Positions 3,496 to 39,655 of a stretch of 64,000 bases of DNA are shown here, in pieces. The position numbers and the translations under genes were made by a program. Below the pieces are notes generated by a model. It saw only the letters and a list, made by a program, of their open reading frames with translations, was not told the DNA's origin and searched no databases. How positions within the stretch are numbered: the first letter of the stretch is position 1; every line of letters starts with the position of its first letter. This DNA comes from a bacterium (GTDB lineage: Bacteria > Zhuqueibacterota > QNDG01 > JAFGCO01): assembly GCA_016930535.1 (NCBI GenBank), contig JAFGGN010000085.1:39281-103280 (forward strand), given 5' to 3'.

Positions 3496-3514
3496 TGAAG
3501 GGTTTACCTCCTCC

Positions 3515-4745: not shown

Positions 4746-4773
4746 GGTGTTTCCGACTCCTGATCAAGTTTGA

Positions 4774-6663: not shown

Positions 6664-6688
6664 TTCGCATCGATTGAACTGAACATTC

Positions 6689-7726: not shown

Positions 7727-7738
7727 AGCTCCCCGCGG

Positions 7739-7758
7739 CATGCCGCGGGGAATGCGTC
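7739..7758. other. perfect GC-rich hairpin (CCCCGCGGCA|TGCCGCGGGG) between convergent genes, without a flanking U-tract
   Basis: A 10-bp perfect inverted repeat centred on GCATGC lies directly after the epmA stop. No T-run follows on either strand. Confidence 0.5.
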
Positions 7759-7800
7759 CGGCGTTCAGTTTCTGCATGACATCTTTCCTTAGCGCTGGCA

Positions 7801-8634: not shown

Positions 8635-8668
8635 TGGAGAGCTCCTTTCAAAATCGATATCTCAGCTG

Positions 8669-9514: not shown

Positions 9515-9528
9515 CGTCGATTCTCCTT

Positions 9529-16966: not shown

Positions 16967-19039
16967 TTATTTCCCTTCGATTTCTTTCAGCAGTGCGCCG
17001 GCATCGTATAATTTCTTCAGTGCTTCCATTATATAAGCGGCATGAACGGATACAGCGCGATTGACGGAAGGATCAAAATAGAACCTTCCCGCCAGGCTTT
17101 CGATATTGCCATCGAAAATAATTCCTATAAATTCGCCATCGCGATTGACGACGGGTGATCCGGAATTGCCGCCGATAATGTCGCAGTCACAGATAAAATT
17201 GACCGGTGTCGACAAATCGAGTTTCTTCTGCCTTTTCCAGAACCGTTCCGGCAGCACATAGTCGCCCTTCTGATTGAAGCTGAGACTTCTGTCATAAAGG
17301 CCGTAAAGTGTTGTATTGACAGGCGCCTTGGTGCCGTTCATACGGTATTCCTTTACCGATCCATACGTGAGCCGCAGTGTAAAATTGGCATCCGGGTACG
17401 TCGTTTTGCCATAAATTGCAAACCGTGCCTTTGCCAGATTGTTGCTGGCACGATCCATTTTGCTCGTGATCATTTTCCTTTTCATTTCAATATCATTCCG
17501 GATGATGGGTGCCATTTTCCTGGCCCAGACAATCAGGGTATCCCGGCACTGTTCGATTGCCTCAAGATCCGCATTCCATAATTTTTCTCTGAAATCGATT
17601 TGATCCATCGATGTTTTTTCGATCAGTGAAGGTGCAATTTCTGAAGGCTCATGACCGGATAAGGCCGCACCAATAAAAGAATCATCCTTTCCCAGATGTT
17701 TCAGACTGATCGACAAACCGCCTGTAAAATTATGGATCTCGTAATCCTTATACACGGGAGCCCTGGACAAAATCCGATGCTTCAGATTATCAAGTTCCGA
17801 ATCATGATAACCCTCCAGGCGGTCGCTGTCCGGCTTGATCAGTTCCTGATGGCAGATGACCAGATCAACCGCCCAATCGGCAAGCCTGGACCCGATAATT
17901 TTTCTGTAATACCATCTTTCTTCATTCTCGATCTGAAGGCTCCGGACAGCGGCAAGAGAATCCCATGGATTGCCGTATTGAGCCAGATATCCGGGATCCG
18001 AGAAAAAACGGTTCTTGAAGTCTTCTTCCACCCTTTTTTTCCCTTCGATCACCCCCGGCAATGAAAGCCCGAGCAGCATACCTTCATAGGCTTTTTTTGA
18101 ATTATTCAAACCGAATATTGTCGGAAGAGCCTTCCGCTCCTCTTCCCGGCCTTTCTTTGCATACCCATCCAGTATCGCCAGCCGTTCGTCGATATAATTG
18201 AGAATCATGGGCATCGAATAATCTTTGGAATAAACAAGACCGTGTACGGAATACAACCGGGAGGTTCTGCCCGGGTGACCGGACACGAAAACCAGCTCAT
18301 CTTCGGCGGCGCCTTTCCGGTTCCATTTCAGATAATGATCGGCGCGTATCGGCCTGTCGTTTTCATAAATTCTGAAAAACGCAATATCGAGATCATAACG
18401 GGGATATGTAAAGTTATCGTCGTCCCCGCCAAAATAAGCCGCCTGCCGCTCAGGGGCCATAACCAGACGCACGTCCGAGTATTTTTTATACTGATACAGC
18501 CAGTATTCTCCGCCTGCGAACAAGGATACAACGGTGCATTCAAGTCCGGTGGAATCCTGCGCTTTTTTTTCCATGCGTGCGATCAGGGATTCTTTGGCCT
18601 GCAAAGCTTCCATATTGTCCATCGTATCGTGTACGGCTTCTTGAATTTCCTCTGTCACATCCCTGAGACCGACCAGAACATTGACATCGAGATCCGGACA
18701 GCGTATTTCTTCTTCCTCATGTGCGGCGTAGAATCCTGTGGTGACATAATCACGGTCTTTGTTGCTGATTTTCTGAAGAAAATTGACGGCCACATGATGA
18801 TTGGTCAGCACAAGTCCGTTTGCACTGGCAAACGAACCCGAACCGCCATTGTTGAAGCGGACGGATGAAAGTCTCAGATGATCGAGCCATTCAGCGGAGG
18901 GAGAGAATTTGTACTTGCTTTTCAGGGAATCGACAGGAATCGAATCGAATGTCCACATGCCTTCTTCAGCCAGACAACATGAACCCGTTACAAGGACGAA
19001 AAACGTGAACAGGCAGGATTTGACAGATTGACGGATCAT
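16967..19039 (-). CDS. S46 family serine peptidase (dipeptidyl-peptidase 7/11-like)
   Basis: After a signal peptide the mature N-terminus is EEGMWTFDS, the hallmark of S46 peptidases. A chymotrypsin-fold catalytic Ser sits in GGNSGSPVVNRDGEFIGIIFDG. The protein is 690 aa and sits 3 nt upstream of the aldo/keto reductase gene. Confidence 0.8.
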   Translation of the reverse strand: MIRQSVKSCLFTFFVLVTGSCCLAEEGMWTFDSIPVDSLKSKYKFSPSAEWLDHLRLSSVRFNNGGSGSFASANGLVLTNHHVAVNFLQKISNKDRDYVTTGFYAAHEEEEIRCPDLDVNVLVGLRDVTEEIQEAVHDTMDNMEALQAKESLIARMEKKAQDSTGLECTVVSLFAGGEYWLYQYKKYSDVRLVMAPERQAAYFGGDDDNFTYPRYDLDIAFFRIYENDRPIRADHYLKWNRKGAAEDELVFVSGHPGRTSRLYSVHGLVYSKDYSMPMILNYIDERLAILDGYAKKGREEERKALPTIFGLNNSKKAYEGMLLGLSLPGVIEGKKRVEEDFKNRFFSDPGYLAQYGNPWDSLAAVRSLQIENEERWYYRKIIGSRLADWAVDLVICHQELIKPDSDRLEGYHDSELDNLKHRILSRAPVYKDYEIHNFTGGLSISLKHLGKDDSFIGAALSGHEPSEIAPSLIEKTSMDQIDFREKLWNADLEAIEQCRDTLIVWARKMAPIIRNDIEMKRKMITSKMDRASNNLAKARFAIYGKTTYPDANFTLRLTYGSVKEYRMNGTKAPVNTTLYGLYDRSLSFNQKGDYVLPERFWKRQKKLDLSTPVNFICDCDIIGGNSGSPVVNRDGEFIGIIFDGNIESLAGRFYFDPSVNRAVSVHAAYIMEALKKLYDAGALLKEIEGK

Positions 19040-19103
19040 TTTTCCTTCTCCAATTGTTGTTTCAGGTAATTAAGTAATTTCGGAATAAAATGCTAACAAT
19101 TCA

Positions 19104-19147
19104 AGAAAAAAGTCATTTTGATTTCAGTGAAACGATCAAAATGACTT
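19104..19147 (-). terminator. candidate Rho-independent terminator after the outer-membrane gene at 19232
   Basis: AAGTCATTTTGAT-(12 nt)-ATCAAAATGACTT is a perfect 13-bp inverted repeat. On the minus transcript it is followed by TTTTTTCTTG. The stem is AT-rich, so stability is modest. Confidence 0.45.
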
Positions 19148-19231: not shown

Positions 19232-20452
19232 TCAGAATTCATACTTCATTTTGACGGAAATATCCATTCCTTCCACATTCAGTTTGATGTTCCCCTGCTC
19301 ACGCGATCCGGCTAGGTATTTCAGATAAAATTCCATCGTCGTCGAATAGGAAAACCGGTATTCCCCGCCGAATCCGCCTCCCAGTACATGGGTTTTGGCC
19401 TGTCCGGCTTCATTTTCACCGTAAAACCGGCCGTCGACGAGTATATGTATCCCTCCGCCGACGATGGCGAAGGCTTTCCAAATGAGGTTCAGATCCAGCT
19501 CGGGCCGGTTGGTATTGTAGGCTTCCTCCTGAAACTGGATCGCCTGCAAATACCGGTTTTTATTTTTCTGTCTGTAGTTCATCAGAAGCCAGACGTATTG
19601 TTCGTCATATCGGTAAAAAAGACCGGTATTCAGAGTCAGCCGTGTCCCGGATTGATACATTTCTTCGCCATCGACGATATCCCGCTGAAAATAGGTGACG
19701 ATACCGTCCAGCATCCATTTCATATCATCCATCAGCCGCACATCCAACCCCATATGCACGCAGAATTCATCACCGGGATCGAACTTTTTATCATAATTGT
19801 GAAGCAGCGTGTCATTGATCAGATAATTATGCAGCGGAACATATTCACCTCTCAAATGATAACTCAGACCACCGCCCAGGACCAGGTTTTCCATCAGCGG
19901 ATACGACAGAAAAGCGCCTGCTTTGGCGAAAAATCCCTGTCCGTATACAGGCATTTGAAACTGAAAAATATTATTGTAAAGATAATTCGATATGATGTTT
20001 TCCATGTAATTCAATTTCGTCTTGCCGACCGGAAGCCCGAGACCGGCGATACACAGCAACCTGCTGTCCCACATCAGCATGTTCCCCTGTACATAAAAAT
20101 CAGACAATCCGCTGAGATTCCATTTTTCCTGTTTTGGGGAGAACACATACTCGGTATGTTCCGGGTTGGTGAACTGCCTGCGATTGATCAGCGCCGTGTA
20201 ATCGGTGCGTCCGAATGAAAACGATGAATAAATATTCAGGGTACTGCTGAGGGGTATGACCATTTCAACCGGAATGGACAGCTGCATCAGCGGATTTGTC
20301 ATCACCCTTTCCTGACGCCACATTTGCAATCCTGCTCCTGATTTGATGTATCCCTGCGGAGATGTCGGCATGATTTCCTGCTGTGCGGATACCGGCAGCC
20401 AGAGTAACGGAATCAGTAAGCATACACACATTAAATGTCTCATTATGATCAT
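19232..20452 (-). CDS. outer-membrane beta-barrel protein, paralog A (partner of giant protein A)
   Basis: It has a signal peptide, and the C-terminus ends ...KMKYEF (aromatic terminal residue). It is clearly homologous to 29462..30577 through shared YGQG, DPGDE, YRQ-KN, DGRFYxENExG and KYLxG blocks. There is a 36-nt gap after giant gene A. Confidence 0.6.
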   Translation of the reverse strand: MIIMRHLMCVCLLIPLLWLPVSAQQEIMPTSPQGYIKSGAGLQMWRQERVMTNPLMQLSIPVEMVIPLSSTLNIYSSFSFGRTDYTALINRRQFTNPEHTEYVFSPKQEKWNLSGLSDFYVQGNMLMWDSRLLCIAGLGLPVGKTKLNYMENIISNYLYNNIFQFQMPVYGQGFFAKAGAFLSYPLMENLVLGGGLSYHLRGEYVPLHNYLINDTLLHNYDKKFDPGDEFCVHMGLDVRLMDDMKWMLDGIVTYFQRDIVDGEEMYQSGTRLTLNTGLFYRYDEQYVWLLMNYRQKNKNRYLQAIQFQEEAYNTNRPELDLNLIWKAFAIVGGGIHILVDGRFYGENEAGQAKTHVLGGGFGGEYRFSYSTTMEFYLKYLAGSREQGNIKLNVEGMDISVKMKYEF

Positions 20453-20488
20453 CCTCAGTTTGATTTGCGCTTCATGAACGGTCCGGGG

Positions 20489-23400
20489 TTATTTGATCAG
20501 CACCATTTTTCGTACAGCAGTTTTGTTCGCAGCCTTCAGCTGATAGACGTACACTCCGGTGGGTAATTTCATCCCCCGGTCATCCGTTGCGTCCCATTCG
20601 ACCGCATGTTTTCCGGCGTGACAGTCCTTTTCAACCATATACCGAACCCGCTGGCCAAGCGCATTATAAATTGAAATCCGGACATCCGATTTTTGGGGAA
20701 GGGTGAAATTGATCGTGGTAACCGGATTGAACGGATTGGGTGAATTGGGCAGCAATGCGAAATCAACGGGTTCCAGAGAAATGCCCTCCCTGTTTTTCTC
20801 CAGAAACTGTGCGGTACCCGCAATCATTTTAAAGGTTCTGCTCATATTGTCCGGATCGGAATTGAATCCATACAACCGGTCTTTCATCAGATCTACGGCC
20901 ACTTCGCTTTCAAAATCGATGAGATAGGCTTTCCAGTTCTCGGGCAGATCGGAAAGATGATTCCAAGTGATCTGATGCCTGGTCTGCGATTCGCCGCAGA
21001 GGACGGACAGTTTCCAAACCTGCCCATCCGTTTCGGTCGGACGAATATCCGCCGCATAGATGTTCGGTTTCTCCTCCCAGTCCGCATGTTCAAAAGTCAA
21101 CGATACGCCGTTCGCAAAGCCGCGCGGCGGCTCGGGTCTGTCATACAGATCAACCTGCATGGACGCGTGTTCGCGGACACCCGCATAATTGTACTTGTCA
21201 CAGCTGTAATCGTCCGATACAGAGATCTGCATGATCCATGACGTTTCTTCCAGATTATCAAGCAATCCCCTCCCGTTTCCGGCCGTTTTACTCAGAGACG
21301 CGTCTTCGGGATGGATGAAGAGATAACCCGGTTCAGGCGATGCATTGAAAAACCAGTAACCTTTCCAGGGCTCGAGATACGGAGTGTCCGGCCGGTAGCC
21401 GTCTTCCCCTTCCCAACCATAGGGCGGCGTGATCTGGGCCGATGAAAGGGAACAGTCCGACCATTTGATGGTGAAATTGTAGGGATTGCCCACCATATTC
21501 CAGCCGGGCTGCAGTTCCTTCTGAAAGCTGGTATCCGTGCTGACCGTATGACCGCCTCTTAAAGAGAACTGACGCTCGATATTGGAAACAAGCCAGTAGG
21601 CTCTCCCGGGAGGCATCGAGAAGGATCCCTTGTACAGATCCGAGAATTCAACATAGATGATGCCTTCGGGATCGTAATTGTACCAGACCTGACTGCGCGC
21701 CGGATCCCACCAGAACAGGCGCCACTGAAACGGATCGTAGTCTTTTATTGAAATCCCCGTGAAAACGGTATCCGCGCCGATATGATCGAGAAAAAACGGA
21801 ACCGAAAACATGGCGGCGAGCTGATACCTGCCCGTACTCATACGCTGGGGCGTGTAAACCAGCTGCGTTTGCATGGATTCAAACCTGATCGGTATCGATT
21901 TCGGTTTGTTGACGGGATCCATGACCGGATATGTAAACATGTGCTGTGTACTTGAAACCACTTCCACATAATACTCGACACCCCGCAAAGTGACCGCTTC
22001 TGACGGAATCACGGCACGGAATGTCTGGTCATTTTCCGGGAAGGCATTCGCGGTTTGATAGGAGATCCGGCCGCTCTGCCTGTAATACAATGTCATGCTT
22101 GAAGCATTGACAGCCACGGGTACGTTCAATGTGAGGGTGATCTGATCGCCCGCGTAAGGCGTGGCCGGCGTGAGTGCAGTCGGCCGTATACCGGCATCGA
22201 TGACCGGATTCATGCTCCAGATCTCTCTGTTGATCGTGGAGAAACGCAGTTCATCCAGATATCCCTGGAAATAACCGGCATATCCGCCGTTTTTACGCTC
22301 AGCCGCACCGAGAAGAAGCGGACGAACCAGGTCTGCAGTTTCAAGATCCGTATTCCATGTCTCCGACCATATTTCAGTGAAATCGACGAACATCCGCCCT
22401 GTTTTCAACTGATGGTCGTAAACAAAGGCGAGATGATGCCAGGCATTATCGTTGACCCTCGGCCCGACACCGTCGATTCCGTTCACAGTCACACGGCCGA
22501 AATTGTTGATGCCCACGATCAGGTCGCCCTGCATCAGGGAATCCTGAAATCCCTTGCCGATAAGGACCTGGGACACGGTGTCGGTCTTGAAATAGCATTC
22601 CAGTGTCAGGCTCTGGGTATGGAAATCGTTCTGCAGCAGCTCGTCGCCGGGAATCTCAACCCTGTCATTGTATCCGTCGAACCGGATGCAGGCATCGAAA
22701 AATCCTTCATCGTTCACGATCCGTGAACCGTTCCATAAGAATCCGTTCAGACGATTCCCTGAATTGTCAAAAATGGTATCCCCGTGCGATTCGTTGAAAT
22801 GATAGAGCATCACCGTGTATCCGTCCGCAGCATATTCGGCTGAACCCGGGCTCAGATAACCGGTTCCGGTCAGCGTGATCGCGGTCTGGGGTGAATTTTT
22901 GGCATTGCTTTGAATCGTGAGCGTTCTTGCATACGACGAAGTGGCCTGAACCGGTTTGAATGTCACGGGAAGAAATACGGATTGAAGCCGGTTCAATGAA
23001 AATGTCTGCATATTTTCAGGAATGCTGAAAATGGTATCCGCGCCGGATATTTCATGAATCGTCAGAGTCTGATCCCCGGGATTCGTGACAATCAGATTCA
23101 TTGTACGGGTAAATCCGAGCTTGACCTGATCGAACGGCAGCTGATACGCGGACAGGATAATCTGAGGAGGTATGACGTTCAGTTCCCAGGCTTTTCTGTC
23201 GATATTCGATATCCTGATCTCATCCATGAACCCGTAAAATACCCGGGACCCGCCGATATCGGAACCGTAGCGTACGGAGCCGCCTGCCAGGCTCAGTATA
23301 TCCCCGATGAAAGATACGCTGTCCTGAACCAGACCGTTTACCATCAGCCTTGCCCAGGATCCGTCAATGGACAGGGATACATGATACCATTGTTCGAGAT

Positions 23401-26400
23401 TGAAATCATCCGATTCGGGGCCGTGGAGCGTGAATCCCTGATTGAGCTGGTTCCATATGCGTGCCACAATTTCACTGTTTTCACCGCTTGTAAAGGCGAT
23501 TTCGAACTGTTTGGTGTTGTCCCCAAGCGCTCTCTGTACGATCAGGGCACCCGTGTTCGGAAGTGCGGACAACCGGAACCAGTTTTCAACCGTGAAATAG
23601 GCGCTCACCTTGCCCTCCAATGCCTCGGAAGGCAGTTCGAAATATCCGCCGTAAAACCGGAGCCCTCCCCCGAAACGGCCGGTATCTGAAATAGCAACCT
23701 GGTCGTGAAGGGTTCCGTGTTTGCCGTTTCCTGAAAAATCGCCTACCGTGACGCCGTCCACTCCGACTGAATCGAGATGAAACAGGGACAGGGTAAACGG
23801 ATCTGTTGGATAAGGTTCCTGCTCGATCGTGGGAATTCCGCTGCCGGACAGATTCACCTTGCGTTCCGGCCAGAAAGGATCGTTTGTGTAAAAAGTCAGT
23901 GCACCCGGATGCGATCCCAGCGTGAGTGCCTTGAATGTGATACGGATACGCCGGCTCTCCTCCTGAAGAAGATAGAACTGCTGTGTATCCGACTGGTAAT
24001 AGGCATCCAGATCAATGGCGATGCTGTCCACAAAAAGCGTATCCATGCCGAGCATGTTGTTCACCGAAAGTTCGAGTGTCCGGCTGGATCCCAGAAATAC
24101 ATCCCCGAAATTCAGCTGGGACGGGGACACGGATATTCTGGCCATATTGACATTGAATTCCCATGTATCGCGTCCCACACCGGATATGCGCACCTCGTCC
24201 ACGTTGCCTGAGAAGGCATTGGCCGAAAGCCAGTCCCCGCCGACAAGCATGGAAAGGGTGTCCAGGATGGTATGGCTCTGGTCGCTTGCCATGGTTCCGC
24301 CGAAGTACCGTGAATCGACGCTGTTGCCGTTGACATAAAGGTAAAGACTGTCCTCACGCTGTACAAGGGCCGTATGATACCACTGATTCAGCTGCACGGC
24401 CCCCAGTGCCGAACTGTTGACCTCGAACAGATCCTGTTCCGTATTGTACATCCTCCCGATAATCCGTCCGCCGTTATCGATGTACATGTCAAATTGATTG
24501 GCGGCCACGTTCCCCCGCCTGATGATCACGCTCTGCGTAATCGGATAGCGGTCGATCCTGAACCAGGTTTCCACGGTGAATCCGCCCCATACCGGACCGA
24601 ACCGGTCCTCCGAACCGGGTTTCACCAAAATCCGGTCCGCCGTATTTTTGAATTTGACGGAAAATCCTTCATCGAATTTCCGTATGGAGGCATCGTAGGT
24701 GGTGCTGCCCTTGAATGCGCCGTCCATTTCCTGACCGGAGCTGTCAGAAGCGACCAGGGGCGTATTGTCATCGAAGTGATACAGCCCCAGGGTAAACGGA
24801 TCCGCCTCATAACGCCCTGCCCGGAAATTGCTGACCGATCTCCCGCGTATGGGCACATTGTATGTGGGAAAAGTCGGATCTGAATTGACAATCACGAGGG
24901 ATTGACCATCTGCATGGTCATTTTCAGTATCAGGATGGTACGTCATCCAGATGATAGTGGATGATTGCGGCATGAGATTGATCGGAAGCGTGACCTCTTC
25001 GTCGATAAATTCGGACGGCGTATACAGATTGGCAATGGTGAGTATCTGGGAACCCCGGTTGTATATGGTCACCGGAACCCGCCTGGTCTGATCCATGAGC
25101 ACATAACCGAACTCGATGGGAGACGGCTGAATGGATATTCGTGCCCGGTTGACGTGAAACTCCCAGGACTGTCTTGCAATGGAAGAAATGTGAATCTCAT
25201 CGATCAGGCCGTTGAACGGTAAATAGCCCGTGGATGTGGCCCCGATGGCCATGGGTTCTGAGGTCTGAGGCCGCAAATCGTTCGACATGGCGGCCTTGGA
25301 GATGGGATCCCCGTTTAAGTAAAGGACCAGACTGTCCATATCCCATGTAAATGCTGCATGGTACCATTGATTCACATTGAAAATGCCGATGGAGCCGGAA
25401 TATATCGTATGCTGATTTCCGCCTGAATCCCAGACGCTGCCCATCAGGCCCTGACCTGTCTGATTGTCGAGTGCGAGTTCGACCTGCCGGGTCTCATTGT
25501 TGCCGCGCCGCATCAGAACGGCATATCCGGATGGGAGTTCCACGATATTGAACCACAATTCGACCGTGAAGGGTGTTTTCTCGAAATTCAGATGGCTGTG
25601 ATACGGAATCTGCAGGTAATCCGATTCCCCGTCGAGCCGGACGGCCTTATTGAAACCGGATTGTGAATTTTCCTGTGTCGGCTCCCCCTGGACAAAGGCA
25701 TCCTTCTCGAGAATCGAGGCGTCCTGAACGGACGATGCGATGGATTCATCATCCAGATGATACAAACCGATGGTGAATTCGTCACGGGTATAGGGACGCG
25801 TGGCCGGCAAAGACGTATTGAGCGTATCCACATAGGCCTGCAGCGTGAGCTCGATTACCGGCTCATCCGGATCATTTGAATAGATGCTTGCCACATCGAT
25901 CTGGGTCGATTTGCCCGCTGTTACAGGCGGAGAGAATGTCACTTCAACCTGCTGCATTTCTCCGGGCGCCACGGTAAACGAAACGTCATCGAAATGAAAC
26001 CAGGAGTTCAGCCACGTGATATTGTCAACCCGAAGCAGCGTGGTTCCCTCATTGATCACGTTCAGAATACGCGGCCGTGACTGGCCGGGAATGACCGGAC
26101 CGAATTGAAGCGGGCTTTCCGGGTAAATGGCGATATCCGGCTGGATAGAACTGCGGAAAAGATACACACCGTCACTGCCGTCGGCCATTGCGACCACACC
26201 GTTGCTGGCGGAAATATCGAGCGCGAGCGCCTCGCCGTTTGTGTTATAATATCCTGTCTCGGGAAACAGCCCGGGTGTTGAAAAATCAAATACACGCAGG
26301 CCCGATTCCGAATCGGTCAGGTAGATGGTTTTCTCGATGATCTGGATATCCGTAATATTTCCACCCGTAGTAACTCGCTGAACGCCGTTCGTCTGAAGGT

Positions 26401-28033
26401 TCCAGAGCAGGAATCCGTAGCGTCCGTTGGCCACGAACAGCGTGTCGCCTACTATGGCCATGCCGTATGCATCGATATCATTGGTCAGCGCATGTGTCTG
26501 AACCGGAAGCGCGGGAAGATCAATGATGTTGTATACAAAGACACTGCTGGAATCCACCAGAATGGCCCGATTGTCACTGACCAGAATTTTTTTGGATACG
26601 CCCGGCGTATTGATCTGCTGTTTTTTGAAAAATCCGCTGTAATCGAGCACGATGAAGCCGTCCGTACCGCAGGCCAGGAGCGCATAACTGCTGCCCTGCC
26701 TCTGATAAATATCCACATCGTAGCATGCATCCTCGATGTCCGAATACTGACCGATGTCGACCGGATTGGCGGGTGTGATCACATCGAGAACACGCAGACC
26801 CGCCGTGCCGTCTGCCAGGAATGCATATCCCTGCCTGACGGTCACGCCGCGAACCTCGCCCTGCGTATTAAATGAACTGTATACGGGAAGATGGTCCTTG
26901 TCCGACTGACTGTAGCTCAGACTGATAATTTTCAAACCTGCCCGGCCGTCAGCCACATAAAGCATGTTGTTGTCAATAAACGCATCATAGGCGTAATCCG
27001 ACGGGCTGATCGTTTCAGTGACGGAGGATTGCTGTCCTTCTTTGACATCCACCAGCAACAATCCGTTGGGCCCGTCGCAGACGAGGGCCGTCGAATCGTC
27101 CTTTATCCAAACACGGTTCGTATATCCTTCCGTATTCAATGCAGGAAAAATCTGCGACCCGGGAGCTGCGGGATTCGAAATGTCGATCGGACCCACAAGG
27201 CCTTCCTCGCCGCATGCAATAAAAAGCCGGTTGCCGCGATAACGCATATCGACCACATCCAGAGGAAGACTGTCCGTCCAGGATCCCAGCTCAACGAGAT
27301 TTTCAGGATCGGAATAATCGACTGTGCGCAGACCTCCGTATCCCGCGGCCACATAGGCCACAGTTCCGCTGATGATGACGTTTTTGGCCTGCGGATCCGA
27401 TATGGGAAATCCCTGAAATGCCGGCGCAAAACCGAGAGAATCATGCACCACGGGCGTGTCTTTTTTCTTCGTATTGACGGAAAACAAACCGGATTCATGA
27501 ACCGCAAGCAGTGCGAGTGAATCGTTCACGACCCACACGTCCATGGCGGGATTGGAAGTGAGATAATATCCCTCTATTTTCGGCTGATAATAATTATGAA
27601 CACCGTAAATCAGCAGACCGCTGGTTCCGGCTGCGACATAGACGTACTTGTTGAAAAATCCGACACCCGTTGCATCTCCCTGAATCGGCACCGTTGAAAT
27701 AATCTCGAGTGTATTTTCGGCCGTGTTCAATTCAACCAGAATCAGTCCATGATGACCGCATACGGCGTAAATCATGTTCAGGGTCGATTCCACCCATATA
27801 TCCTTGATCGCGCCCGGAAGCAGAATTTCGAGATAGGGATCCAGGGAGCCTGACGCATTGGTCGTATAAACCTGAAGATAGGCACCGTTGCCGATAAATG
27901 TATAGTCGCCGCGCTGAAATACCGCTTCACAGCGTCCTTCGGCCCACTGGGCACTGCGTTCCACATTGAACTGCTGTGCCATTGATCCGAAACTGATGGT
28001 CAGCAAAAGCAGGGTAACGGTTTTTCTTAACAT
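20489..28033 (-). CDS. giant secreted protein A (2514 aa): N-terminal LVIVD-repeat beta-propeller, about 4 alternating choice-of-anchor-D Ig-like and LamG/concanavalin-A-like modules, C-terminal T9SS sorting domain
   Basis: It has a signal peptide. LVIVD-type repeats include YVADGRAGLKIISL, FLADGTAGLRVLDVITPANPV and IYLTDSESGLRVFDFSTPG. Choice-of-anchor-D-like segments include FGPVIPGQSRPRILNVINEGTTLL. LamG_3-like modules include FTLGLYHFDD...WYH...LYVNG and YTVMLYHFNESHGDTIFDNSGN. The C-terminus PNSPNPFNPVTTINFTLPQ...GVYVYQLKA is a Por_Secre_tail-type sorting domain. An RBS GAGGAG precedes the start. Confidence 0.8.
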   Translation of the reverse strand: MLRKTVTLLLLTISFGSMAQQFNVERSAQWAEGRCEAVFQRGDYTFIGNGAYLQVYTTNASGSLDPYLEILLPGAIKDIWVESTLNMIYAVCGHHGLILVELNTAENTLEIISTVPIQGDATGVGFFNKYVYVAAGTSGLLIYGVHNYYQPKIEGYYLTSNPAMDVWVVNDSLALLAVHESGLFSVNTKKKDTPVVHDSLGFAPAFQGFPISDPQAKNVIISGTVAYVAAGYGGLRTVDYSDPENLVELGSWTDSLPLDVVDMRYRGNRLFIACGEEGLVGPIDISNPAAPGSQIFPALNTEGYTNRVWIKDDSTALVCDGPNGLLLVDVKEGQQSSVTETISPSDYAYDAFIDNNMLYVADGRAGLKIISLSYSQSDKDHLPVYSSFNTQGEVRGVTVRQGYAFLADGTAGLRVLDVITPANPVDIGQYSDIEDACYDVDIYQRQGSSYALLACGTDGFIVLDYSGFFKKQQINTPGVSKKILVSDNRAILVDSSSVFVYNIIDLPALPVQTHALTNDIDAYGMAIVGDTLFVANGRYGFLLWNLQTNGVQRVTTGGNITDIQIIEKTIYLTDSESGLRVFDFSTPGLFPETGYYNTNGEALALDISASNGVVAMADGSDGVYLFRSSIQPDIAIYPESPLQFGPVIPGQSRPRILNVINEGTTLLRVDNITWLNSWFHFDDVSFTVAPGEMQQVEVTFSPPVTAGKSTQIDVASIYSNDPDEPVIELTLQAYVDTLNTSLPATRPYTRDEFTIGLYHLDDESIASSVQDASILEKDAFVQGEPTQENSQSGFNKAVRLDGESDYLQIPYHSHLNFEKTPFTVELWFNIVELPSGYAVLMRRGNNETRQVELALDNQTGQGLMGSVWDSGGNQHTIYSGSIGIFNVNQWYHAAFTWDMDSLVLYLNGDPISKAAMSNDLRPQTSEPMAIGATSTGYLPFNGLIDEIHISSIARQSWEFHVNRARISIQPSPIEFGYVLMDQTRRVPVTIYNRGSQILTIANLYTPSEFIDEEVTLPINLMPQSSTIIWMTYHPDTENDHADGQSLVIVNSDPTFPTYNVPIRGRSVSNFRAGRYEADPFTLGLYHFDDNTPLVASDSSGQEMDGAFKGSTTYDASIRKFDEGFSVKFKNTADRILVKPGSEDRFGPVWGGFTVETWFRIDRYPITQSVIIRRGNVAANQFDMYIDNGGRIIGRMYNTEQDLFEVNSSALGAVQLNQWYHTALVQREDSLYLYVNGNSVDSRYFGGTMASDQSHTILDTLSMLVGGDWLSANAFSGNVDEVRISGVGRDTWEFNVNMARISVSPSQLNFGDVFLGSSRTLELSVNNMLGMDTLFVDSIAIDLDAYYQSDTQQFYLLQEESRRIRITFKALTLGSHPGALTFYTNDPFWPERKVNLSGSGIPTIEQEPYPTDPFTLSLFHLDSVGVDGVTVGDFSGNGKHGTLHDQVAISDTGRFGGGLRFYGGYFELPSEALEGKVSAYFTVENWFRLSALPNTGALIVQRALGDNTKQFEIAFTSGENSEIVARIWNQLNQGFTLHGPESDDFNLEQWYHVSLSIDGSWARLMVNGLVQDSVSFIGDILSLAGGSVRYGSDIGGSRVFYGFMDEIRISNIDRKAWELNVIPPQIILSAYQLPFDQVKLGFTRTMNLIVTNPGDQTLTIHEISGADTIFSIPENMQTFSLNRLQSVFLPVTFKPVQATSSYARTLTIQSNAKNSPQTAITLTGTGYLSPGSAEYAADGYTVMLYHFNESHGDTIFDNSGNRLNGFLWNGSRIVNDEGFFDACIRFDGYNDRVEIPGDELLQNDFHTQSLTLECYFKTDTVSQVLIGKGFQDSLMQGDLIVGINNFGRVTVNGIDGVGPRVNDNAWHHLAFVYDHQLKTGRMFVDFTEIWSETWNTDLETADLVRPLLLGAAERKNGGYAGYFQGYLDELRFSTINREIWSMNPVIDAGIRPTALTPATPYAGDQITLTLNVPVAVNASSMTLYYRQSGRISYQTANAFPENDQTFRAVIPSEAVTLRGVEYYVEVVSSTQHMFTYPVMDPVNKPKSIPIRFESMQTQLVYTPQRMSTGRYQLAAMFSVPFFLDHIGADTVFTGISIKDYDPFQWRLFWWDPARSQVWYNYDPEGIIYVEFSDLYKGSFSMPPGRAYWLVSNIERQFSLRGGHTVSTDTSFQKELQPGWNMVGNPYNFTIKWSDCSLSSAQITPPYGWEGEDGYRPDTPYLEPWKGYWFFNASPEPGYLFIHPEDASLSKTAGNGRGLLDNLEETSWIMQISVSDDYSCDKYNYAGVREHASMQVDLYDRPEPPRGFANGVSLTFEHADWEEKPNIYAADIRPTETDGQVWKLSVLCGESQTRHQITWNHLSDLPENWKAYLIDFESEVAVDLMKDRLYGFNSDPDNMSRTFKMIAGTAQFLEKNREGISLEPVDFALLPNSPNPFNPVTTINFTLPQKSDVRISIYNALGQRVRYMVEKDCHAGKHAVEWDATDDRGMKLPTGVYVYQLKAANKTAVRKMVLIK

Positions 28034-28071
28034 GTGTAAGATTCTCCTCTTGATCCGACAGTCGTCATCAT

Positions 28072-29445
28072 TTATCGCTGCGGAGGTCTTGGAGGTTCAG
28101 AAAGCTGAAACGGCAGCACAGGAGCCGGAGAAATACTGGCCTCGACAAAAGGCTCACGGGAATTGTTGCCCGGAAGGATCAGGGCATTATGCTGCAATCC
28201 CATCCACTGCAGCCGGTTGTATGAACTGACGATATCCGGCGGCGGTGAAAACACGAGTCGCGCGCGTCCGCGTGCGGACGTTTCGACGAGATGCCGGACT
28301 TCATACGTCACACGCATCTGATTGTAATTCTGTGTCACTTCCCAAATTTTCGGATTCAGCATATAATCCTGGGCATTGATAAAAGAACCGTCGTATCTCA
28401 GCGCATTGTGAAAATGATTCTGGGCGATCGAGAAATTACCCTGATCGAGCGCATCAAGACCGCGGCAGTAGCTGATAAACGCCAGCATATTTTCCGTGGG
28501 AATTTCGAGCAGCTGATCACGCTGTCTGTCGTTCATAAAAATATCGAAGAAATCCGAAATCCGCATGGCCAGTTCTTTTTCAATTTTAAAAAAGCGGGCC
28601 AGATTGCCGTCGAAATTCATGCTCAGGGCTGTGGCATTCGTTTCAGCGGTAATGATTTCCGAATCCAGCGTCATCTTCAGATCATCCGTAATCAGGTACG
28701 ATCCGTTGATCAGATACCTGGCACCCAGAATACGCGCCACGCGCTGCTGAACACCCGGTTCGCGCATGCTGACCGGATTCAGTCCCAGCTCGGACATCAG
28801 ACGGTTCAGCTTGACACGGTCGATGACCACCAGATTCGGTATAGTGGAAAGGTCCTGGGCGATGATTTCAGCAAGACCTTTCTGCAGGGGATCCCATTCG
28901 ACATTGTCGCTCAGGTTGAGAAAATAGGTCACCACCACGCTGTTTTCCGGAAATTCCTCGAAACGGCGGATATCCTCTTCCTGAATGGCCTTGTTCAGTT
29001 CACGTCCGATTTTCTGCTGCGAGACCCAGTTGAGACGGCCGAACATGAAATAGCGGTAGGGATCGTCATCGGGCAGCACTTTGTAACGCCTGTAAACGGA
29101 CAGGGCCTCGTTTTCCTGATCAAGCGCCTCCCGGGACATCCCGAGAAAAAACAGAGCCTTGCCATGAGCCGGATCCTTTTCCAATACTTTTTCAAATATT
29201 TTGGCCGCGGCCGAGTAGCTCTGCTTGTGCCAGTAGGCCACACCGATTCCTGTCATCGCTTCCTTATCGTAAAGAATGAAGCGCTTCCCGTCACGGATGC
29301 GCGGCCTCAGCATCATCAGATAATTCCGGATGGCCTTGTCATAATCCTTACGATCAAGCTCTTCTTCCGCAGCATGATATTTTGAAGTTGCGCACCCGCT
29401 GAAGAACACAGCGAATATCAAAACTGCAGCAAGTTTCCATTTCAT
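28072..29445 (-). CDS. lipoprotein with N-terminal TPR region, central CsgG/LpoB/FlgO-like alpha/beta domain and Pro-rich C-terminal tail, paralog A
   Basis: The lipobox is FFSGC. It is paralogous to 37015..38442 (KDYDKAIRNYLMML vs NDYERAMQAYIRSL; DGKRFILYDKEAMTGIGVA vs DGKRYIRYQPVAMTRIGIS; LPDDDP vs LPADDP). The central segment VVVTYFLNLSDN...LAEIIAQDLS is weaker than in the paralog. The tail is SEPPRPPQR. Confidence 0.55.
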   Translation of the reverse strand: MKWKLAAVLIFAVFFSGCATSKYHAAEEELDRKDYDKAIRNYLMMLRPRIRDGKRFILYDKEAMTGIGVAYWHKQSYSAAAKIFEKVLEKDPAHGKALFFLGMSREALDQENEALSVYRRYKVLPDDDPYRYFMFGRLNWVSQQKIGRELNKAIQEEDIRRFEEFPENSVVVTYFLNLSDNVEWDPLQKGLAEIIAQDLSTIPNLVVIDRVKLNRLMSELGLNPVSMREPGVQQRVARILGARYLINGSYLITDDLKMTLDSEIITAETNATALSMNFDGNLARFFKIEKELAMRISDFFDIFMNDRQRDQLLEIPTENMLAFISYCRGLDALDQGNFSIAQNHFHNALRYDGSFINAQDYMLNPKIWEVTQNYNQMRVTYEVRHLVETSARGRARLVFSPPPDIVSSYNRLQWMGLQHNALILPGNNSREPFVEASISPAPVLPFQLSEPPRPPQR

Positions 29446-29461
29446 GAAACAACCCCAATGG

Positions 29462-30577
29462 TTATATGGTGATCTTCAGACTTGCGAGAATATCGAACCC
29501 GCTGATATCGATATCCACGACCGATTCGATGGTACCGGTCAGATACTTGAGCTGAATCCGGGAAAGCACCGTCGGGGACAATTTGTGCTGAATTCCCAGG
29601 CCCGCACCATATACGGACGCTTTGCCGAATCCGTCTTCGTTTTCGCTGTAAAAACGGCCGTCCCATAAGAGTGACAATCCGCCTTCCGGCCATTGCGTGA
29701 ATTCCCAGAGTCCGTCCGTTTCGATCTGATCCCCGATGGTCTTTTTGGATATTTTTTCCGAATCGTCCTGGGCATTTCCAGGCAGATACAGATCGTTTTT
29801 CCCTCTCTGCCTGTACCGCAATGAGGCGTACAGAAAACCGGGATTCAATCGATACGCCAGTGTGGATGATATCAGGATCTTGTCGCCGGCCTCGAGCATT
29901 TTTTCATCATTATACAGATCTTCGGTATACATGGTGTACACGAGATCCAGGCTCCATTTTCCCTTATCCTGAACGGGCATGCTCACACCGCCGACAATGT
30001 TGATTTCATCTCCGGGATCATATTCCGAATCCAGTCCGGACCATAACGAATAGGGCTGCTTCAGTATATAATTGGCTCCCAGTCCGAGCACGGTGCCTCC
30101 CTGCATCGGGAATGTCATGCCGGCGCCGACTTTGGCCGACAATCCCTGACCGTAATTGGGAAGCCGGAAACGCAGAATATTTTCACTCAGCTGCCTCGTG
30201 ATCATATATTCCGCGGCCGTCAGTTCCGTTTTTCCGGTGGGAGCGCCCACACCCATATTGATCATCCAGCGTTCATCGGCCGAGACATACGTCACACGCA
30301 GCCAGGTGTCCGAAAGACCGCTGACACTGCTGTCGCCCCAGGAAGCCGTGGCCGGTGTATTGGTCGCTGTCAGAAACCAGTTTGCATTGACAGGATAGAA
30401 GCAGAGCAAGGGAGCGGCTGTCTGGTTCAGGGACGTATCCTGGTCCTCGGCTGTCCATTGCTGGTAGGATACACCGAGATTGACATATCCGCTGCCCTTG
30501 GAGGGCTGCATGTATTCCTGAGCGAAAGCAGAGCCCGCAACCGTGGAAAGCACGATATAAAGAATCCATTTTTTCAT
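29462..30577 (-). CDS. outer-membrane beta-barrel protein, paralog B (partner of giant protein B)
   Basis: The signal peptide is MKKWILYIVLSTVAGSAFAQE. It is homologous to 19232..20452 (NYGQG, DPGDE, YRQRGKN, DGRFYSENEDG, KYLTG). There is a 26-nt gap after giant gene B and a 16-nt gap before lipoprotein A. Confidence 0.6.
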   Translation of the reverse strand: MKKWILYIVLSTVAGSAFAQEYMQPSKGSGYVNLGVSYQQWTAEDQDTSLNQTAAPLLCFYPVNANWFLTATNTPATASWGDSSVSGLSDTWLRVTYVSADERWMINMGVGAPTGKTELTAAEYMITRQLSENILRFRLPNYGQGLSAKVGAGMTFPMQGGTVLGLGANYILKQPYSLWSGLDSEYDPGDEINIVGGVSMPVQDKGKWSLDLVYTMYTEDLYNDEKMLEAGDKILISSTLAYRLNPGFLYASLRYRQRGKNDLYLPGNAQDDSEKISKKTIGDQIETDGLWEFTQWPEGGLSLLWDGRFYSENEDGFGKASVYGAGLGIQHKLSPTVLSRIQLKYLTGTIESVVDIDISGFDILASLKITI

Positions 30578-30603: not shown

Positions 30604-33600
30604 TTATCTGACGAGCATCATTTTTCGTATGGCCACCCTGCCCGGGAACTCGAGTTTGTAAAAATAAATACCGGAAGACAGGGCCGTCCCGCGGTTCGAG
30701 AGGCCGGACCATCTGATTTCATACTCACCGGACTGCTGTTCCTGATTGATCAGGACGTTCACGCATTCACCCCGCATATTGTACACGCTCAGCTTGACAT
30801 GACCCGTACGGGGCAGCGAGTATTTAATCATTGTTACCGGATTGAATGGATTCGGATAATTCTGATACAGATGGAATTCGCGTGGTGCAACCGCATTCTC
30901 CAGCTGCTTCTGAACGAATTCCGGCGGACCGGCAATGCATTTCAGGAAACGGACATTGGGAACCTCATCCGGGGTTACCATGGCATAATCGTCCATGTCC
31001 GTGACATCGAGGGCAATGCCTTCCCGTTCGTCGACCAGCATGATCTTCCAGGATTCAGGCAGCGTCTGAACCATCTGCCAGGTCAGTTTGATCAGCTTCT
31101 TATTCAGAGAAGATTCCACGGCGATATCCCAGACAAAGCCCTCTTCCTGCGGCGAGCGGATGTCCGCCGCGTAGGTCCCGGGATGTCCGGCCCAGTCTGA
31201 ATGATCGAAGAACACGGAAATATACTCACCGATGGGCGGCGGCTCGACACGGTCCCTCAGATCCCATTCGGCTCTTGCATCCTGCCGTACACCGATATAA
31301 TTGTCGAGATCCTCCGCCGATTCGGCCCGTGCAGACAATTTCCATATCCAGTCGGATTCTGCCAGCGATTCCAGCACGCCTCCGCGTGTGGCCGCACCTT
31401 TTGCGAGCGCTGCGGATTCACGCGGCGGGACAATCAAATCGTTATAGGTTCTCCCGGCATTGTATATCCAGTAGCCGCCCCACGGATCGAGCGTGGGCCA
31501 GTCAAGCCGGTATCCCATGCCGTTATAGTAGTACAGCGTTTCCAATGAATCTGAAGTCAGGGCGCAGTCGTTCCAGTGCACCGTGAACGGGAAAGGCGAA
31601 CCGATCATGCTCCACTGCGGCCTGAGTGAAAAGCGGTAGGGACCGTTTGTGGAAACCGAAGCGCCTGCATTCACGTCCCACAGTTTCCGTGCCGCCGAAA
31701 TGACCCAGAATGCGCGTCCCTGATCGAATGCAAACACGAGGCTGTCCGCATAGGACAGGCTGTCGTCCATTTCCCAGTATGACGTATCCTTCCAGGTCAG
31801 GCAGCGCCATTCATAGGGATCCCAGACATTGTTGAATTCATCCAGCAGCACGGTTCCCGCATTGGCATCGTCCAGATCGGCCGGAACCGAAACCATGACA
31901 TACTTCTTTTTCAGGAACATGGCCGAGGTATCCGCAGTCAGTGAATTGAAACGCACACGCGCGGCCATCGGCCGGTTGATCGGATCGTACAGGGGATGCG
32001 TCGATGTGCGGCCGGATGTGACCATTTCCACATAAAATTCGAGACCCCGTTCCGTCATCTGGTCTGCGGGAACGATCGCCTGATACAGGGTCGGAACAAG
32101 CTGATCAGGCGTCGCTGTTAGTGTCTGATATCCTCTCTGTCCCCCCTGCCTGTAATGGAGATACACTTCTTTATCCGTCGTTGTGACTGGAACCGTGATC
32201 TGAACCGCCTGCTGCACGCCCTTCTGCGGCACGGTTGTATAGGATGCGGAAATACCGGTTCCCTTGAAGATCAGGTCCCAGGGCTGACGGGCGATGCTTG
32301 AAATTCTGATTTCATCCATGGTCCCGTCAAAAAAACCGGTGAGCTGGCCTGTTGCGGTTTCACGGGCCGCAAATACAAGCCTTCCCGGAGAGACGATGTC
32401 CGTATCCCCCGCATGCCACAAGCCCTGCAGTTCCACATTGCCGTCCAGATACAGGGTGGCCTGCTGGACCGTTCCGTCATACACGAATGCCGCGTGATGC
32501 CATACCCCGTCCGCCACGCAGGTGTTCCCCTTGCCGAATCCGTGCAGGGTCAGGAGCCCGTCCGTATCGATGATCAGGCCGTAATTGCTGCGGTTTTCCG
32601 AGCCGGATATATGGGGATCCTTGTGGAACAGCACCTGGTTGAGCGTGTCGGTTTTAAAGAAGCATTCGACCGTGAAACTTTCGGTGGACAAATCGAACTG
32701 AAGACCCGCATCATCCGCCACCCACATGTACTCGTCCACGCCGTTGAAGGACAAACCGCCGGAGAAATAAGCGGGATTTACGCGCGATCCCGTGCCGGCC
32801 ATGGTCCCGTTATGATTTCCGGTCGCATCCGCGACACTCAATCCGGTTTCATCGCAATGCCAGAGCGCCACCGTATACTGATCGAGCCCGTAGGGCACTT
32901 TGGGCCGGTAATCGATTCCCACGGCCAGTATCGGAACGCTGAGCATCGGCGTGTCCGGATCGTTGCTGAAAATCCTCAATGTATCCGTCACGGTTCTGAT
33001 TGTGTCCGGAACGAACTGGACGAACAGGTTGGTCGTTTCTCCTGCGGTCAGCGTGATTTTTGCCGGTGCCATCAGGAAAACGGACTGATTCGTGCGGATC
33101 GTATCGATCACGAGAGGAACGCCGCCTATATTCGACACTTCGATAATGCGGTTCGCGGAACTGCCGACCATGACGGTACCGAATTCGAGACGCTGTGCGG
33201 CCGTATAAATATTGGGAATGCCGACATTGAACTCCTCGGGCTGACGGTCGATATTCGAAAAACGGATTTCATCCAGATACCCGTTGAACCCGTGACCGGT
33301 ACCGTAATCACCGCCCAGAGCCAGATCCGCAACCGAACTGCGCAGCGTTCCGTTAAAAGCAACGGAATCCACGGCCACGCCGTTGACGTACAGCCTGAAT
33401 TTGTTCAGATCCCATGTGAGTGCCATCTGATACCAGGAATCGATGTTCATTTCAGTATCCGGAGGTCCGTACAATGTGTAGATCTGCCCGCCCGAACTGT
33501 ACAGGCGGATCACGAGGCCCTTGCCCGCGGTCAGCGTATCGCCGTACATGACTTCGTACTGCAGACTGGTGCCGCTGCCGCGCCGGAATAATGTGTAGAA

Positions 33601-39556: not shown

Positions 39557-39655
39557 TAACCCGTTTTACGAAAAACACATTGATAATAACGGGAGATTAT
39601 AGTATTTTAATCATATATGAGGGACAGGACCAAGGACGATCTGGGAAATATTCAC

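Follow-up and report, generated by a model that had tools for sequence, protein, structure and literature searches.

The window, by which is meant the whole 64-kb stretch of DNA that was analysed, contains a cluster in which genes for a lipoprotein, a giant putative T9SS cargo and an outer-membrane β-barrel follow one another twice (Table 1). The first gene of the cluster encodes a small CsgG-like protein. A consensus scan for promoters and terminators was uninformative, as its sites are no commoner than in shuffled sequence; the likely cluster terminator is missing from it because the scan demands three G-C pairs. No T9SS core genes (SprA/Sov, PorV, PorK-N or PorU) were found within the window.

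Table 1. Features of the gene cluster (coordinates are those of the window)
Feature	Coordinates	Strand	Evidence and description
Small CsgG-like protein, 241 aa	38577..39302	(-)	Pfam CsgG PF03783 (E-value: 2.4e-14); N-terminal signal sequence, C-terminal TPR
Lipoprotein T1, 475 aa	37015..38442	(-)	Lipobox MLGC, TPR, TolB-N/CsgG-like alpha/beta domain, TPR, proline-rich tail
Giant cargo G1, 2125 aa	30604..36981	(-)	Pfam and NCBIfam matches; TIGR04183 35.4 bits (cut-off 23)
Pre-CTD module of G1, ~530 aa in the window's lineage	30871..32466	(-)	HMM matches
Barrel B1, 371 aa	29462..30577	(-)	Signal peptide, then outer-membrane β-barrel read as 16-stranded
Lipoprotein T2, 457 aa	28072..29445	(-)	Lipobox FSGC, TPR (24-155), alpha/beta domain (169-299), TPR (306-389), disordered proline-rich tail
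Giant cargo G2, 2514 aa	20489..28033	(-)	Architecture as G1; TIGR04183 36.0 bits (cut-off 23)
Pre-CTD module of G2	20756..22405	(-)	HMM matches
Barrel B2, 406 aa, B1 paralogue	19232..20452	(-)	BLASTP, tree; starts 36 nt after G2
Hairpin and T run, likely cluster terminator	19103..19147	(-)	A-T-rich intergenic sequence; RNAfold -12.5 kcal/mol

B1 and B2 are full-length paralogues (29% identity over 388 columns, BLASTP E-value: 5e-55). Both ORFs exist as an earlier note on this DNA described them, the spacing that it gave from the giant stop codons is exact (26 nt for B1 after G1, 36 nt for B2 after G2) and the conserved blocks that it named are present in the alignment (P.YGQG, DPGDE, YRQ..KN, DGRFY.ENE.G and KYL.G). 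These blocks are kept in 32 homologues and, in weaker forms, in 135 representatives of the wider family. Each barrel also begins with the signal peptide proposed for it, basic residues followed by a hydrophobic stretch ending A-Q (SAFA-QE and VSA-QQ, read by eye); residues 1-27 of B1 are a low-confidence segment of the AlphaFold model. The model is otherwise that of a confident outer-membrane barrel, as the earlier note had expected, and probably has 16 strands, both strand count and loop sidedness being taken from its DSSP string alone. Strand 1 begins approximately 10 residues past the signal peptide and POTRA domains are absent. In both proteins the last strand runs to the C-terminus, where the final residue is aromatic or aliphatic; this outer-membrane hallmark (F, L, Y, I or W) is found in 123 of 135 family members. 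Conserved positions lie in loop 3 and the strands, with none in the periplasmic turns. Loop 3 of B1, the most conserved element of the barrel, is long and contains a short helix and a Gly-rich motif. The only systematic length difference between B1 and B2 is an insertion of approximately 11 residues in extracellular loop 4 of the B2 clade; beyond this there is no clear specificity signature, as just one clade-specific fixed residue separates the two.

The barrels are members of a family of outer-membrane β-barrels that has not been described, with about 1,337 clusters at 50% identity and no Pfam or NCBIfam model. The profile search against PorP/SprF, PorV and FadL/OmpP1 that had been suggested came back empty, with no Pfam or NCBIfam match for B1 or B2 at E-values up to 1. 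PF11751 and TIGR03519 (PorP/SprF) match none of the 32 close homologues and, weakly, 2 of 105 family representatives (best E-value: 1e-3); what these two sets matched otherwise were generic barrel families. With negative sequence profiles and a different closest fold, membership of PorP/SprF, PorV or FadL was rejected; for PorV/FadL, neither PF19572 or PF03349 nor the 14-strand FadL-like fold with its N-terminal hatch was found. Omp85/TpsB was also rejected, as POTRA domains and matches to PF01103/PF03865 or ShlB are lacking and the VRGY loop-6 motif occurs in only 5 of 135 members. When compared with PDB sequences, the family profile gives only a chance-level match (OprC, E-value: 1.2), and a Foldseek search of the PDB returns generic barrels only (TM-score 0.40-0.50).

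G1 and G2 are likewise paralogues (31% identity over 1575 aligned residues). G1 consists of a signal peptide, LVIVD repeats, ASH/choice-of-anchor-D Ig domains alternating with LamG domains, a pre-CTD module and a type A sorting domain. Both giants have the features of type A T9SS cargo, namely a Sec signal peptide (read from the sequence) and a C-terminal sorting domain that passes the curated cut-off of TIGR04183 and also matches PF18962 (29.2 and 28.3 bits; cut-off 27). The type B domain CHU_C scores 25.5 and 18.3 bits, under its cut-off of 27. The sorting domain is nearly invariant and is kept in 27/27 giants compared. Directly before it lies a core of approximately 350-460 aa that is common to all barrel-linked cargoes. 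An HMM of this module, built on residues -620 to -88, matches every one of them (E-values: 1e-53 to 1e-101 in distant loci), and the module is present in 50/50 linked sorting-domain ORFs of at least 450 aa despite their differing N-terminal domains. The linked cargoes are otherwise variable, ranging from 600 to 3,275 aa and carrying PKD, fn3, BNR/sortilin propeller, DUF4350 and LamG passenger domains. The module has no sequence relative in the PDB and no Pfam family, the only matches being edge matches from the preceding LamG domain; a word-indexed homologue search with it gave 14 proteins. As an internal control, the other sorting-domain protein of the window (1001 aa) has neither the module nor an adjoining barrel.

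The lipoproteins T1 and T2 form a third paralogous pair (27% identity, E-value: 1e-43) that was missed earlier, so the repeated unit comprises three genes. T1 has Pfam matches to TPR and, weakly, to TolB_N, and is placed in clade 1 of the lipoprotein tree. An orthologue of the small CsgG-like protein is encoded in the same position in loci L001, L002, L008, L011, L013 and L016, and in single-cassette loci its gene directly follows the barrel gene. Identity with the CsgG curli channel was rejected, as the CsgG fold with two transmembrane hairpins (36-strand pore) was not found. Trees of the barrels, giants and lipoproteins are congruent: they show a single ancient duplication, after which both copies were retained and the paralogues did not homogenise. 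In the lineage of the window the whole triplet was thus duplicated once, long ago, each giant retaining a lipoprotein and a barrel of its own. Barrel and cargo were duplicated jointly, as the earlier note had it, but the unit is lipoprotein, giant and barrel rather than a pair of genes. In L016, cassette 1 is missing in its entirety.

The same arrangement recurs elsewhere, among dozens of bacteria that have not been cultured. The 54 non-redundant loci contain 56 barrels for which upstream sequence is available, and 46 of these have a sorting-domain gene on the same strand that ends no more than 300 nt upstream. Another six follow a lipoprotein gene, with a convergent cargo gene adjacent to three of them. 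A CsgG-like lipoprotein is encoded within the fetched locus for 49 of 62 loci-barrels. The lipoprotein-giant-barrel order is seen in KSB1/Zhuqueibacterota, Rhodothermales, a MAG labelled Cytophagia and unclassified MAGs, and it persists in several phyla among barrels only about 25% identical. As the loci come from many samples and several databases, they are not assembly artefacts of one source. The linkage of barrel and cargo in 46/56 cases is therefore systematic rather than incidental, and the barrels are not generic porins that occur without neighbouring T9SS cargo. That they are ordinary porins placed after giant genes by chance can be given almost no weight: some family members have weak matches to generic Pfam barrels (OMP_b-brl, 13/105; Phenol_MetA_deg, 11/105), but the gene order kept across several phyla contradicts this explanation, as do the congruent trees.

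One-to-one specificity between barrel and cargo, which had been read from the duplication, is not a rule of the family. Two cargo genes precede one barrel in L034, an extra short cargo gene lies past the barrel in L041 and L046, and in some loci a barrel is accompanied by two or three cargo genes. Linked genes kept together do not prove physical specificity. On co-evolution of each barrel with the C-terminal region of its giant, proposed as a check, mirror-tree comparisons of 13 cassettes give an indirect signal of co-variation: barrel distances track the pre-CTD module best (r=0.96; partial r=0.74 with the first 600 aa of that giant, its N-terminal part, controlled for) and correlate with lipoprotein distances at r=0.79, the pairs being non-independent and the r values without a valid significance test.

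The reading that we favour, with a probability of roughly one half, is that each barrel serves a single class of T9SS cargo as its dedicated partner in the outer membrane and, with its lipoprotein, acts as a cargo-specific carrier or anchor. From the sequences and the gene neighbourhoods we infer export by the T9SS, the membrane topology, contact of the module with the barrel and a function as anchor or carrier. Cargo of this class would consist of a variable N-terminal passenger (here propeller repeats, Ig and LamG domains), the 350-460-aa module and a type A sorting domain. Sec would take it across the inner membrane, and the sorting domain would direct it across the outer membrane via the general T9SS. 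The pre-CTD module would then dock on the extracellular or lumenal face of its barrel. On the periplasmic side, the lipoprotein encoded with the barrel (TPR, TolB-N/CsgG-like domain, TPR) would hold it, in many loci together with the second, small CsgG-like protein. Barrel and lipoprotein would thus act as PorP/SprF and PorE do for type B cargo in Bacteroidota.

Comparison with known T9SS components gives this reading both support and difficulty. PorV, a FadL-like 14-strand barrel, is the general shuttle for type A sorting domains; the barrels described here would resemble it as outer-membrane barrels handling type A cargo. In the PorP/SprF system, as here, an outer-membrane barrel is encoded beside a very large sorting-domain surface protein. 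The partner cargoes of PorP/SprF carry a type B sorting domain (TIGR04131 / CHU_C), whereas those of the present barrels are of type A (TIGR04183), and the organisms here are mostly outside Bacteroidota. The lipoproteins also differ from PorE, having a TolB-N/CsgG-like domain where PorE has propeller and OmpA domains. PorP/SprF shuttles are cargo-specific, with barrel paralogues dedicated to particular cargoes and encoded next to them (PMC12618676). PorP-PorE-PG1035 and SprF-SprB complexes are known, PorE being an outer-membrane-associated periplasmic protein with TPR (PMC9143113). SprF and its close homologues have a periplasmic C-terminal tail with Cys-x-Cys (PMC12635249). This tail is absent here (no column of the barrel alignment exceeds 11% Cys), and its absence, with the lack of a detectable sequence relation between the barrels and PorP/SprF, speaks against a carrier. 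A dedicated partner is also made less probable by the handling of type A sorting domains in Bacteroidota, where the general shuttle PorV needs no dedicated barrel (PMC12618676). We suggest, with more reserve, that the three components may constitute an unrecognised module, common across the FCB superphylum, and a type A counterpart of PorP/SprF-PorE that would lead its cargo subclass to a fixed site on the surface, where the cargo would be anchored non-covalently. Searches of the literature gave no description of this module.

The CsgG-family domain and TPRs of the co-encoded proteins would also fit another function. Barrel and CsgG/TolB-N-like TPR lipoproteins could form an export conduit of their own, for the giant or for a polymer, that is independent of or downstream of the T9SS and comparable to PelB-PelC, PgaA, BcsC or a POTRA-less two-partner-secretion transporter. 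PelB-PelC, PgaA, BcsC and AlgK-AlgE are exopolysaccharide outer-membrane exporters; the TPRs here are on the lipoprotein rather than fused to the barrel, the linked gene encodes a protein that bears a T9SS signal, and sequence relation to these exporters is not detectable. Ig, LamG and propeller domains make up the cargo here, and the T9SS is known to transport such domains in the folded state. A 16-strand lumen could pass an unfolded chain only. The conserved helix-containing loop could serve as a gate, and PelC, a CsgG-like lipoprotein, makes a 12-mer ring on the PelB barrel (PMC12141448). A self-contained exporter with a POTRA-less, TpsB-like barrel within a ring of CsgG-like lipoproteins is a possibility. 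In TpsB/CdiB (Omp85) systems the partner has a TPS domain, which the giants here lack; they have a T9SS sorting domain instead. This sorting domain is intact on every linked cargo, and an independent exporter would not need one. The missing POTRA domains and Omp85/ShlB matches, the rarity of VRGY, the generic Foldseek results and a cluster that contains no polysaccharide synthase or glycosyltransferase gene also argue against a conduit, which we regard as unlikely.

Alternatively, each barrel could be a substrate-specific diffusion channel for whatever the surface protein captures or releases, as in polysaccharide utilisation, with the lipoprotein as an accessory. Its most conserved part, loop 3 with its helix and Gly-rich motif, is in the position of the constriction loop of 16-strand porins, and the giants of the window carry LamG/ConA-like lectin domains. 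However, passengers vary widely while the barrel, lipoprotein and pre-CTD module stay constant; the barrel therefore co-varies with the sorting-proximal module and not with binding specificity. A porin would not need its own co-duplicated TPR lipoprotein. Neither hydrolases, TonB-dependent transporters nor inner-membrane permeases are consistently linked to the barrel loci, and a search for consistent neighbours (TonB-dependent receptors, hydrolases and T9SS core genes) found none, the flanks varying between loci. A diffusion channel is thus improbable.

Models of the T9SS derive almost entirely from two Bacteroidota species and provide dedicated barrels, PorP/SprF, for type B cargo only. The present family is large and unannotated. 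It occurs chiefly in uncultured phyla of the FCB group, KSB1/Zhuqueibacterota among them, as well as in Rhodothermales, and is tied to a lipoprotein of its own and to one subclass of type A cargo that can be defined. If the carrier or anchor reading is true, the principle of the dedicated carrier would extend to type A signals, the docking module would allow one to predict which giant surface proteins stay cell-bound, and annotation resources would gain three new families (the barrel, the lipoprotein architecture and the pre-CTD module). The two paralogous systems of the window, lying within one operon, provide a testable pair for partner specificity.

The barrels are encoded in a seven-gene cluster, in which the gene for a small CsgG-like protein is followed by two cassettes, each consisting of a lipoprotein, a giant cargo and a barrel (T1-G1-B1 and T2-G2-B2; see the table). 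The spacings within the cluster are 33, 26, 16, 38 and 36 nt, and the 192-nt spacer between B2 and an unrelated S46 peptidase gene contains a hairpin; the arrangement resembles a single operon. An earlier note placed each barrel 26-36 nt downstream of a giant gene, and the spacings are exactly 26 and 36 nt. The signal peptides that it assigned to B1 and B2 are typical (ending at an A/Q boundary), and every sequence block that it listed as shared is present in an end-to-end alignment of the two proteins (29% identity, E-value: 5e-55). It also held that the barrel was duplicated together with its cargo. Both pairs are indeed paralogous (G1 and G2: 31% identity over 1575 aligned residues), but the repeated unit is the triplet, since T1 and T2, a pair missed by the note, are paralogues as well (27% identity, E-value: 1e-43).

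Coordinates of the cassette cluster and of features within lipoproteins T1 and T2
Feature	Position	Strand	Remarks
Small CsgG-like protein	39302-38577	-	241 aa; first in cluster
Lipoprotein T1	38442-37015	-	475 aa; second
T1 proline-rich tail	37015-37100	-	
Giant G1	36981-30604	-	2125 aa; third
Barrel B1	30577-29462	-	371 aa; fourth
Lipoprotein T2	29445-28072	-	457 aa; fifth
T2 TPR domain	residues 24-155		AlphaFold model
T2 compact alpha/beta domain	residues 169-299		no long hairpins; AlphaFold model
T2 second TPR domain	residues 306-389		AlphaFold model
T2 proline-rich tail	28072-28110	-	
Giant G2	28033-20489	-	2514 aa; sixth
Barrel B2	20452-19232	-	406 aa; seventh, last
A-T-rich hairpin and T run	19147-19103		3' of B2; -12.5 kcal/mol

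A gene for a GWxTD-domain protein (PF20094, E-value: 7e-20; 39617-40915, + strand) lies upstream of the CsgG-like gene in divergent orientation, as it does in three related loci (L001, L002 and L008). Ordinary flanking genes encode an S46 dipeptidyl-peptidase (16967-19039, - strand), a TonB-dependent receptor (55920-57977, + strand) and a GH94 phosphorylase (62509-63960, - strand), while NusA, a lysyl-tRNA-synthetase-like protein and two PAS histidine kinases are encoded elsewhere in the window. No T9SS core genes are found within these 64 kb.

Neighbour-joining trees of the barrels, the lipoproteins and the C-terminal 600 residues of the giants divide in the same manner, with the first cassette of each locus in clade 1, the second in clade 2 and single-cassette loci (such as those of KSB1) outside both. 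Paralogues from the same genome are never mutual closest relatives, and the divergence between copies is about equal for the three components (27-31% identity). Together, these features indicate that the entire triplet was duplicated in tandem once, long ago, after which the two copies would have evolved independently and both been retained in at least 10 sampled lineages. In L016, a homologous locus from elsewhere, the small CsgG-like gene is directly followed by a clade-2 cassette, and all three genes of the clade-1 triplet are missing together. Retention of both copies supports the view that the two sets are non-redundant. Physical specificity is not proven by it, since genes that are linked have a common history in any case, and one barrel per cargo is not universal. 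In L034, two cargo genes (1049-4993 and 5670-9791) precede a single barrel, both bearing the pre-CTD module (a conserved segment just before the type A T9SS C-terminal sorting domain). In L041 (14247-16055) and L046 (11330-13189), the barrel is followed by an additional 600-aa cargo gene encoding a signal peptide, the module and the sorting domain. A barrel can therefore accompany more than one cargo.

Gene context was surveyed in 54 non-redundant loci from public contigs, species-representative genomes and metagenomes sampling a distant subfamily, with HMMs of four components (barrel, lipoprotein, small CsgG-like protein and sorting domain) used to annotate the ORFs. Of the 62 barrel genes in these loci, 56 are preceded by 400 nt or more of sequence and form the testable set. 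For 46 of the 56, a sorting-domain gene on the same strand ends within 300 nt upstream. Three others have a sorting-domain ORF 344-1,916 nt upstream, six directly follow a TPR/CsgG-like lipoprotein gene (three of these with a convergent sorting-domain gene just downstream) and one lies on a short contig on which none of these genes was found. A CsgG-like lipoprotein is encoded within the fetched locus for 49/62 barrels. The earlier note would have been refuted by generic porins occurring elsewhere without T9SS cargo. The loci show the opposite, so that the barrel-cargo linkage is real; that the barrel is an incidental porin is contradicted by the synteny and highly improbable. No other neighbours are conserved; glycoside hydrolases, a helicase, peptidases and cyclases are among the genes that vary. 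In one sub-clade (L053 3866-8673 and L058 11863-16687), the barrel and small CsgG-like genes are followed by genes for an 835-aa protein and a CHASE2 adenylate/guanylate cyclase. In two single-cassette KSB1-type loci (L003 1-671 and L004 733-1529), an FGE-sulfatase-family gene lies just upstream of the giant. GldK/PorK and GldJ are members of the FGE-sulfatase superfamily.

G1 and G2 both pass the curated model TIGR04183 (type A T9SS sorting domain; 35-36 bits, cut-off 23) and contain LVIVD repeats and ASH/choice-of-anchor-D Ig domains alternating with LamG. Barrel-linked sorting-domain proteins are about 600 to 3,275 aa long, and their N-terminal domains vary (LVIVD, BNR/sortilin or DUF5122 propellers, ASH Ig, LamG, PKD, fn3 and DUF4350). 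An HMM of the pre-CTD module, built on residues -620 to -88 of giants of the window type, finds a match in all linked cargoes immediately before the sorting domain; the matches cover 350-460 residues, and their E-values in distant loci are 1e-53 to 1e-101. No Pfam family covers the module, and it has no sequence relative in the PDB. Across all loci, 51 sorting-domain ORFs reach 450 aa or more, and 50 of them carry the module; 48 of these 50 are within 2.5 kb of a barrel and the remaining two belong to the same clusters. The sole module-free ORF is a 1001-aa type A sorting-domain protein of the window (42237-45242, + strand; Flg_new_2, Big_9 and cadherin-like domains). As it has neither the module nor an adjacent barrel, this protein serves as an internal control, with a sample of one. 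Barrel pairwise distances correlate best with those of the module (r = 0.96; partial r = 0.74 once the N-terminal 600 residues of the same giant are accounted for, reverse partial 0.25; r = 0.79 with the lipoproteins), a relationship that is suggestive only because it is drawn from 13 cassettes and non-independent pairs.

The profile searches proposed in the earlier note (PorP/SprF, PorV, FadL and OmpP1) gave no result, as neither B1 nor B2 matches any Pfam or NCBIfam model at an E-value of 1 or below. The barrel prediction itself is borne out by a confident AlphaFold model of B1 (from 32 homologues; pLDDT 82.7, pTM 0.78), which is all-beta except for one short helix. Judging from the DSSP string, B1 probably has 16 transmembrane strands, and the sidedness of its loops is predicted likewise. 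The periplasmic turns are very short and the single long loop, loop 3 (residues 114-146), houses the helix as well as the best-conserved motifs (GxPTGKT and FRFRLPxYGQG). Positions conserved in both barrel clades are found in loop 3 (10/33) and the strands, with none among the 25 positions of the periplasmic turns. The clades differ systematically in length only at loop 4, which is ~11 residues longer in the B2 clade. The C-terminal residue is F, L, Y, I or W in 123 of 135 family members, as is usual in outer-membrane proteins, and neither a cysteine nor a VRGY motif is conserved among these members. The porin-like character of loop 3 could suggest a specific uptake channel coupled to the surface protein, which is unlikely given that the passengers are variable and that the barrel has its own duplicated lipoprotein.

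Foldseek matches to the B1 model in the PDB are generic (TM-scores 0.40-0.50). The fold-match figures are 17.5 for both Fusobacterium BamA and CymA, 16.6 for PelB, 16.0 for PgaA, 15-16 for classical porins, 14.8 for FadL and 14.1 for PorV. Both T1 and T2 have lipoboxes. The T2 model is confident (pLDDT 85.1) and ends in a disordered tail with a conserved proline-rich motif at its end; from its architecture, T1 and T2 can be assigned a TolB-N/CsgG/PelC-type fold without the CsgG membrane hairpins. The tail motif (consensus LPxxLxEPPxPP in 49 homologues) may serve as a docking peptide. A PelBC- or TpsB-like conduit is suggested by the best-scoring folds and by the co-occurrence of TPRs with a CsgG-like lipoprotein (PMC12141448). 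This role is unlikely, as the T9SS signal is invariant on the cargo, the cargo is made of folded domains and the barrels have no POTRA domains.

Across the family, barrel, lipoprotein(s), pre-CTD module and type A sorting domain stay constant, and the passenger is the variable part. The likeliest role for the barrel and lipoprotein, with a probability of roughly one half, is that of a cargo-specific carrier or anchor, which would operate as follows. The cargo would be exported by the general T9SS via its sorting domain. The adjacent module would then dock on the dedicated barrel, which the lipoprotein would brace from the periplasmic side, and barrel and lipoprotein would together form the carrier or anchor. 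This arrangement would mirror the PorP-PorE-PG1035 and SprF-SprB complexes (PMC9143113). Cargo-specific PorP/SprF shuttles are likewise encoded beside their own cargo, although that cargo is type B (PMC12618676) and the cargo here has a type A sorting domain. SprF is linked to GldK by a Cys-x-Cys tail (PMC12635249), which is absent from the barrels here. Because of these two differences and the lack of a sequence match, membership of the barrel in the PorP/SprF family was rejected. A dedicated barrel encoded next to a giant T9SS cargo is a principle already known for type B signals. The barrel family, the type A pairing, the TolB-N/TPR lipoprotein partner and the pre-CTD module appear to be undescribed, and no Pfam or NCBIfam model or literature description of the barrel-lipoprotein-module system was found.

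The barrel family is sizeable and unannotated. A word-indexed search returned 32 homologues, all unnamed, and HMMER, run exhaustively against 1.84 billion cluster representatives, returned 1,337 proteins with E-values of 1e-3 or below (403 at 1e-30 or below), with lengths of mostly 355-400 aa among the best 150 of the 1,337 matches. A Pfam scan of 105 members gave weak generic matches only (OMP_b-brl 13, Phenol_MetA_deg 11, PorP_SprF 2 with a best E-value of 1e-3, and PorV 1). Matches in genomes come from KSB1/Zhuqueibacterota, part of the FCB superphylum (PMC11683472), Rhodothermales, a Cytophagia-labelled MAG and many unclassified MAGs (several labelled Zod_). A sorting-domain gene and a barrel of this bacterial family also occur on a 3.2-kb contig assigned to a Thermoplasmatota archaeon (L024, JAFGPP010000016.1), probably through mis-binning. 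In a KSB1 MAG (L025 8847-10039), the barrel gene is broken into ORFs of 257 and 142 aa, reflecting a frameshift, a pseudogene or an assembly error.
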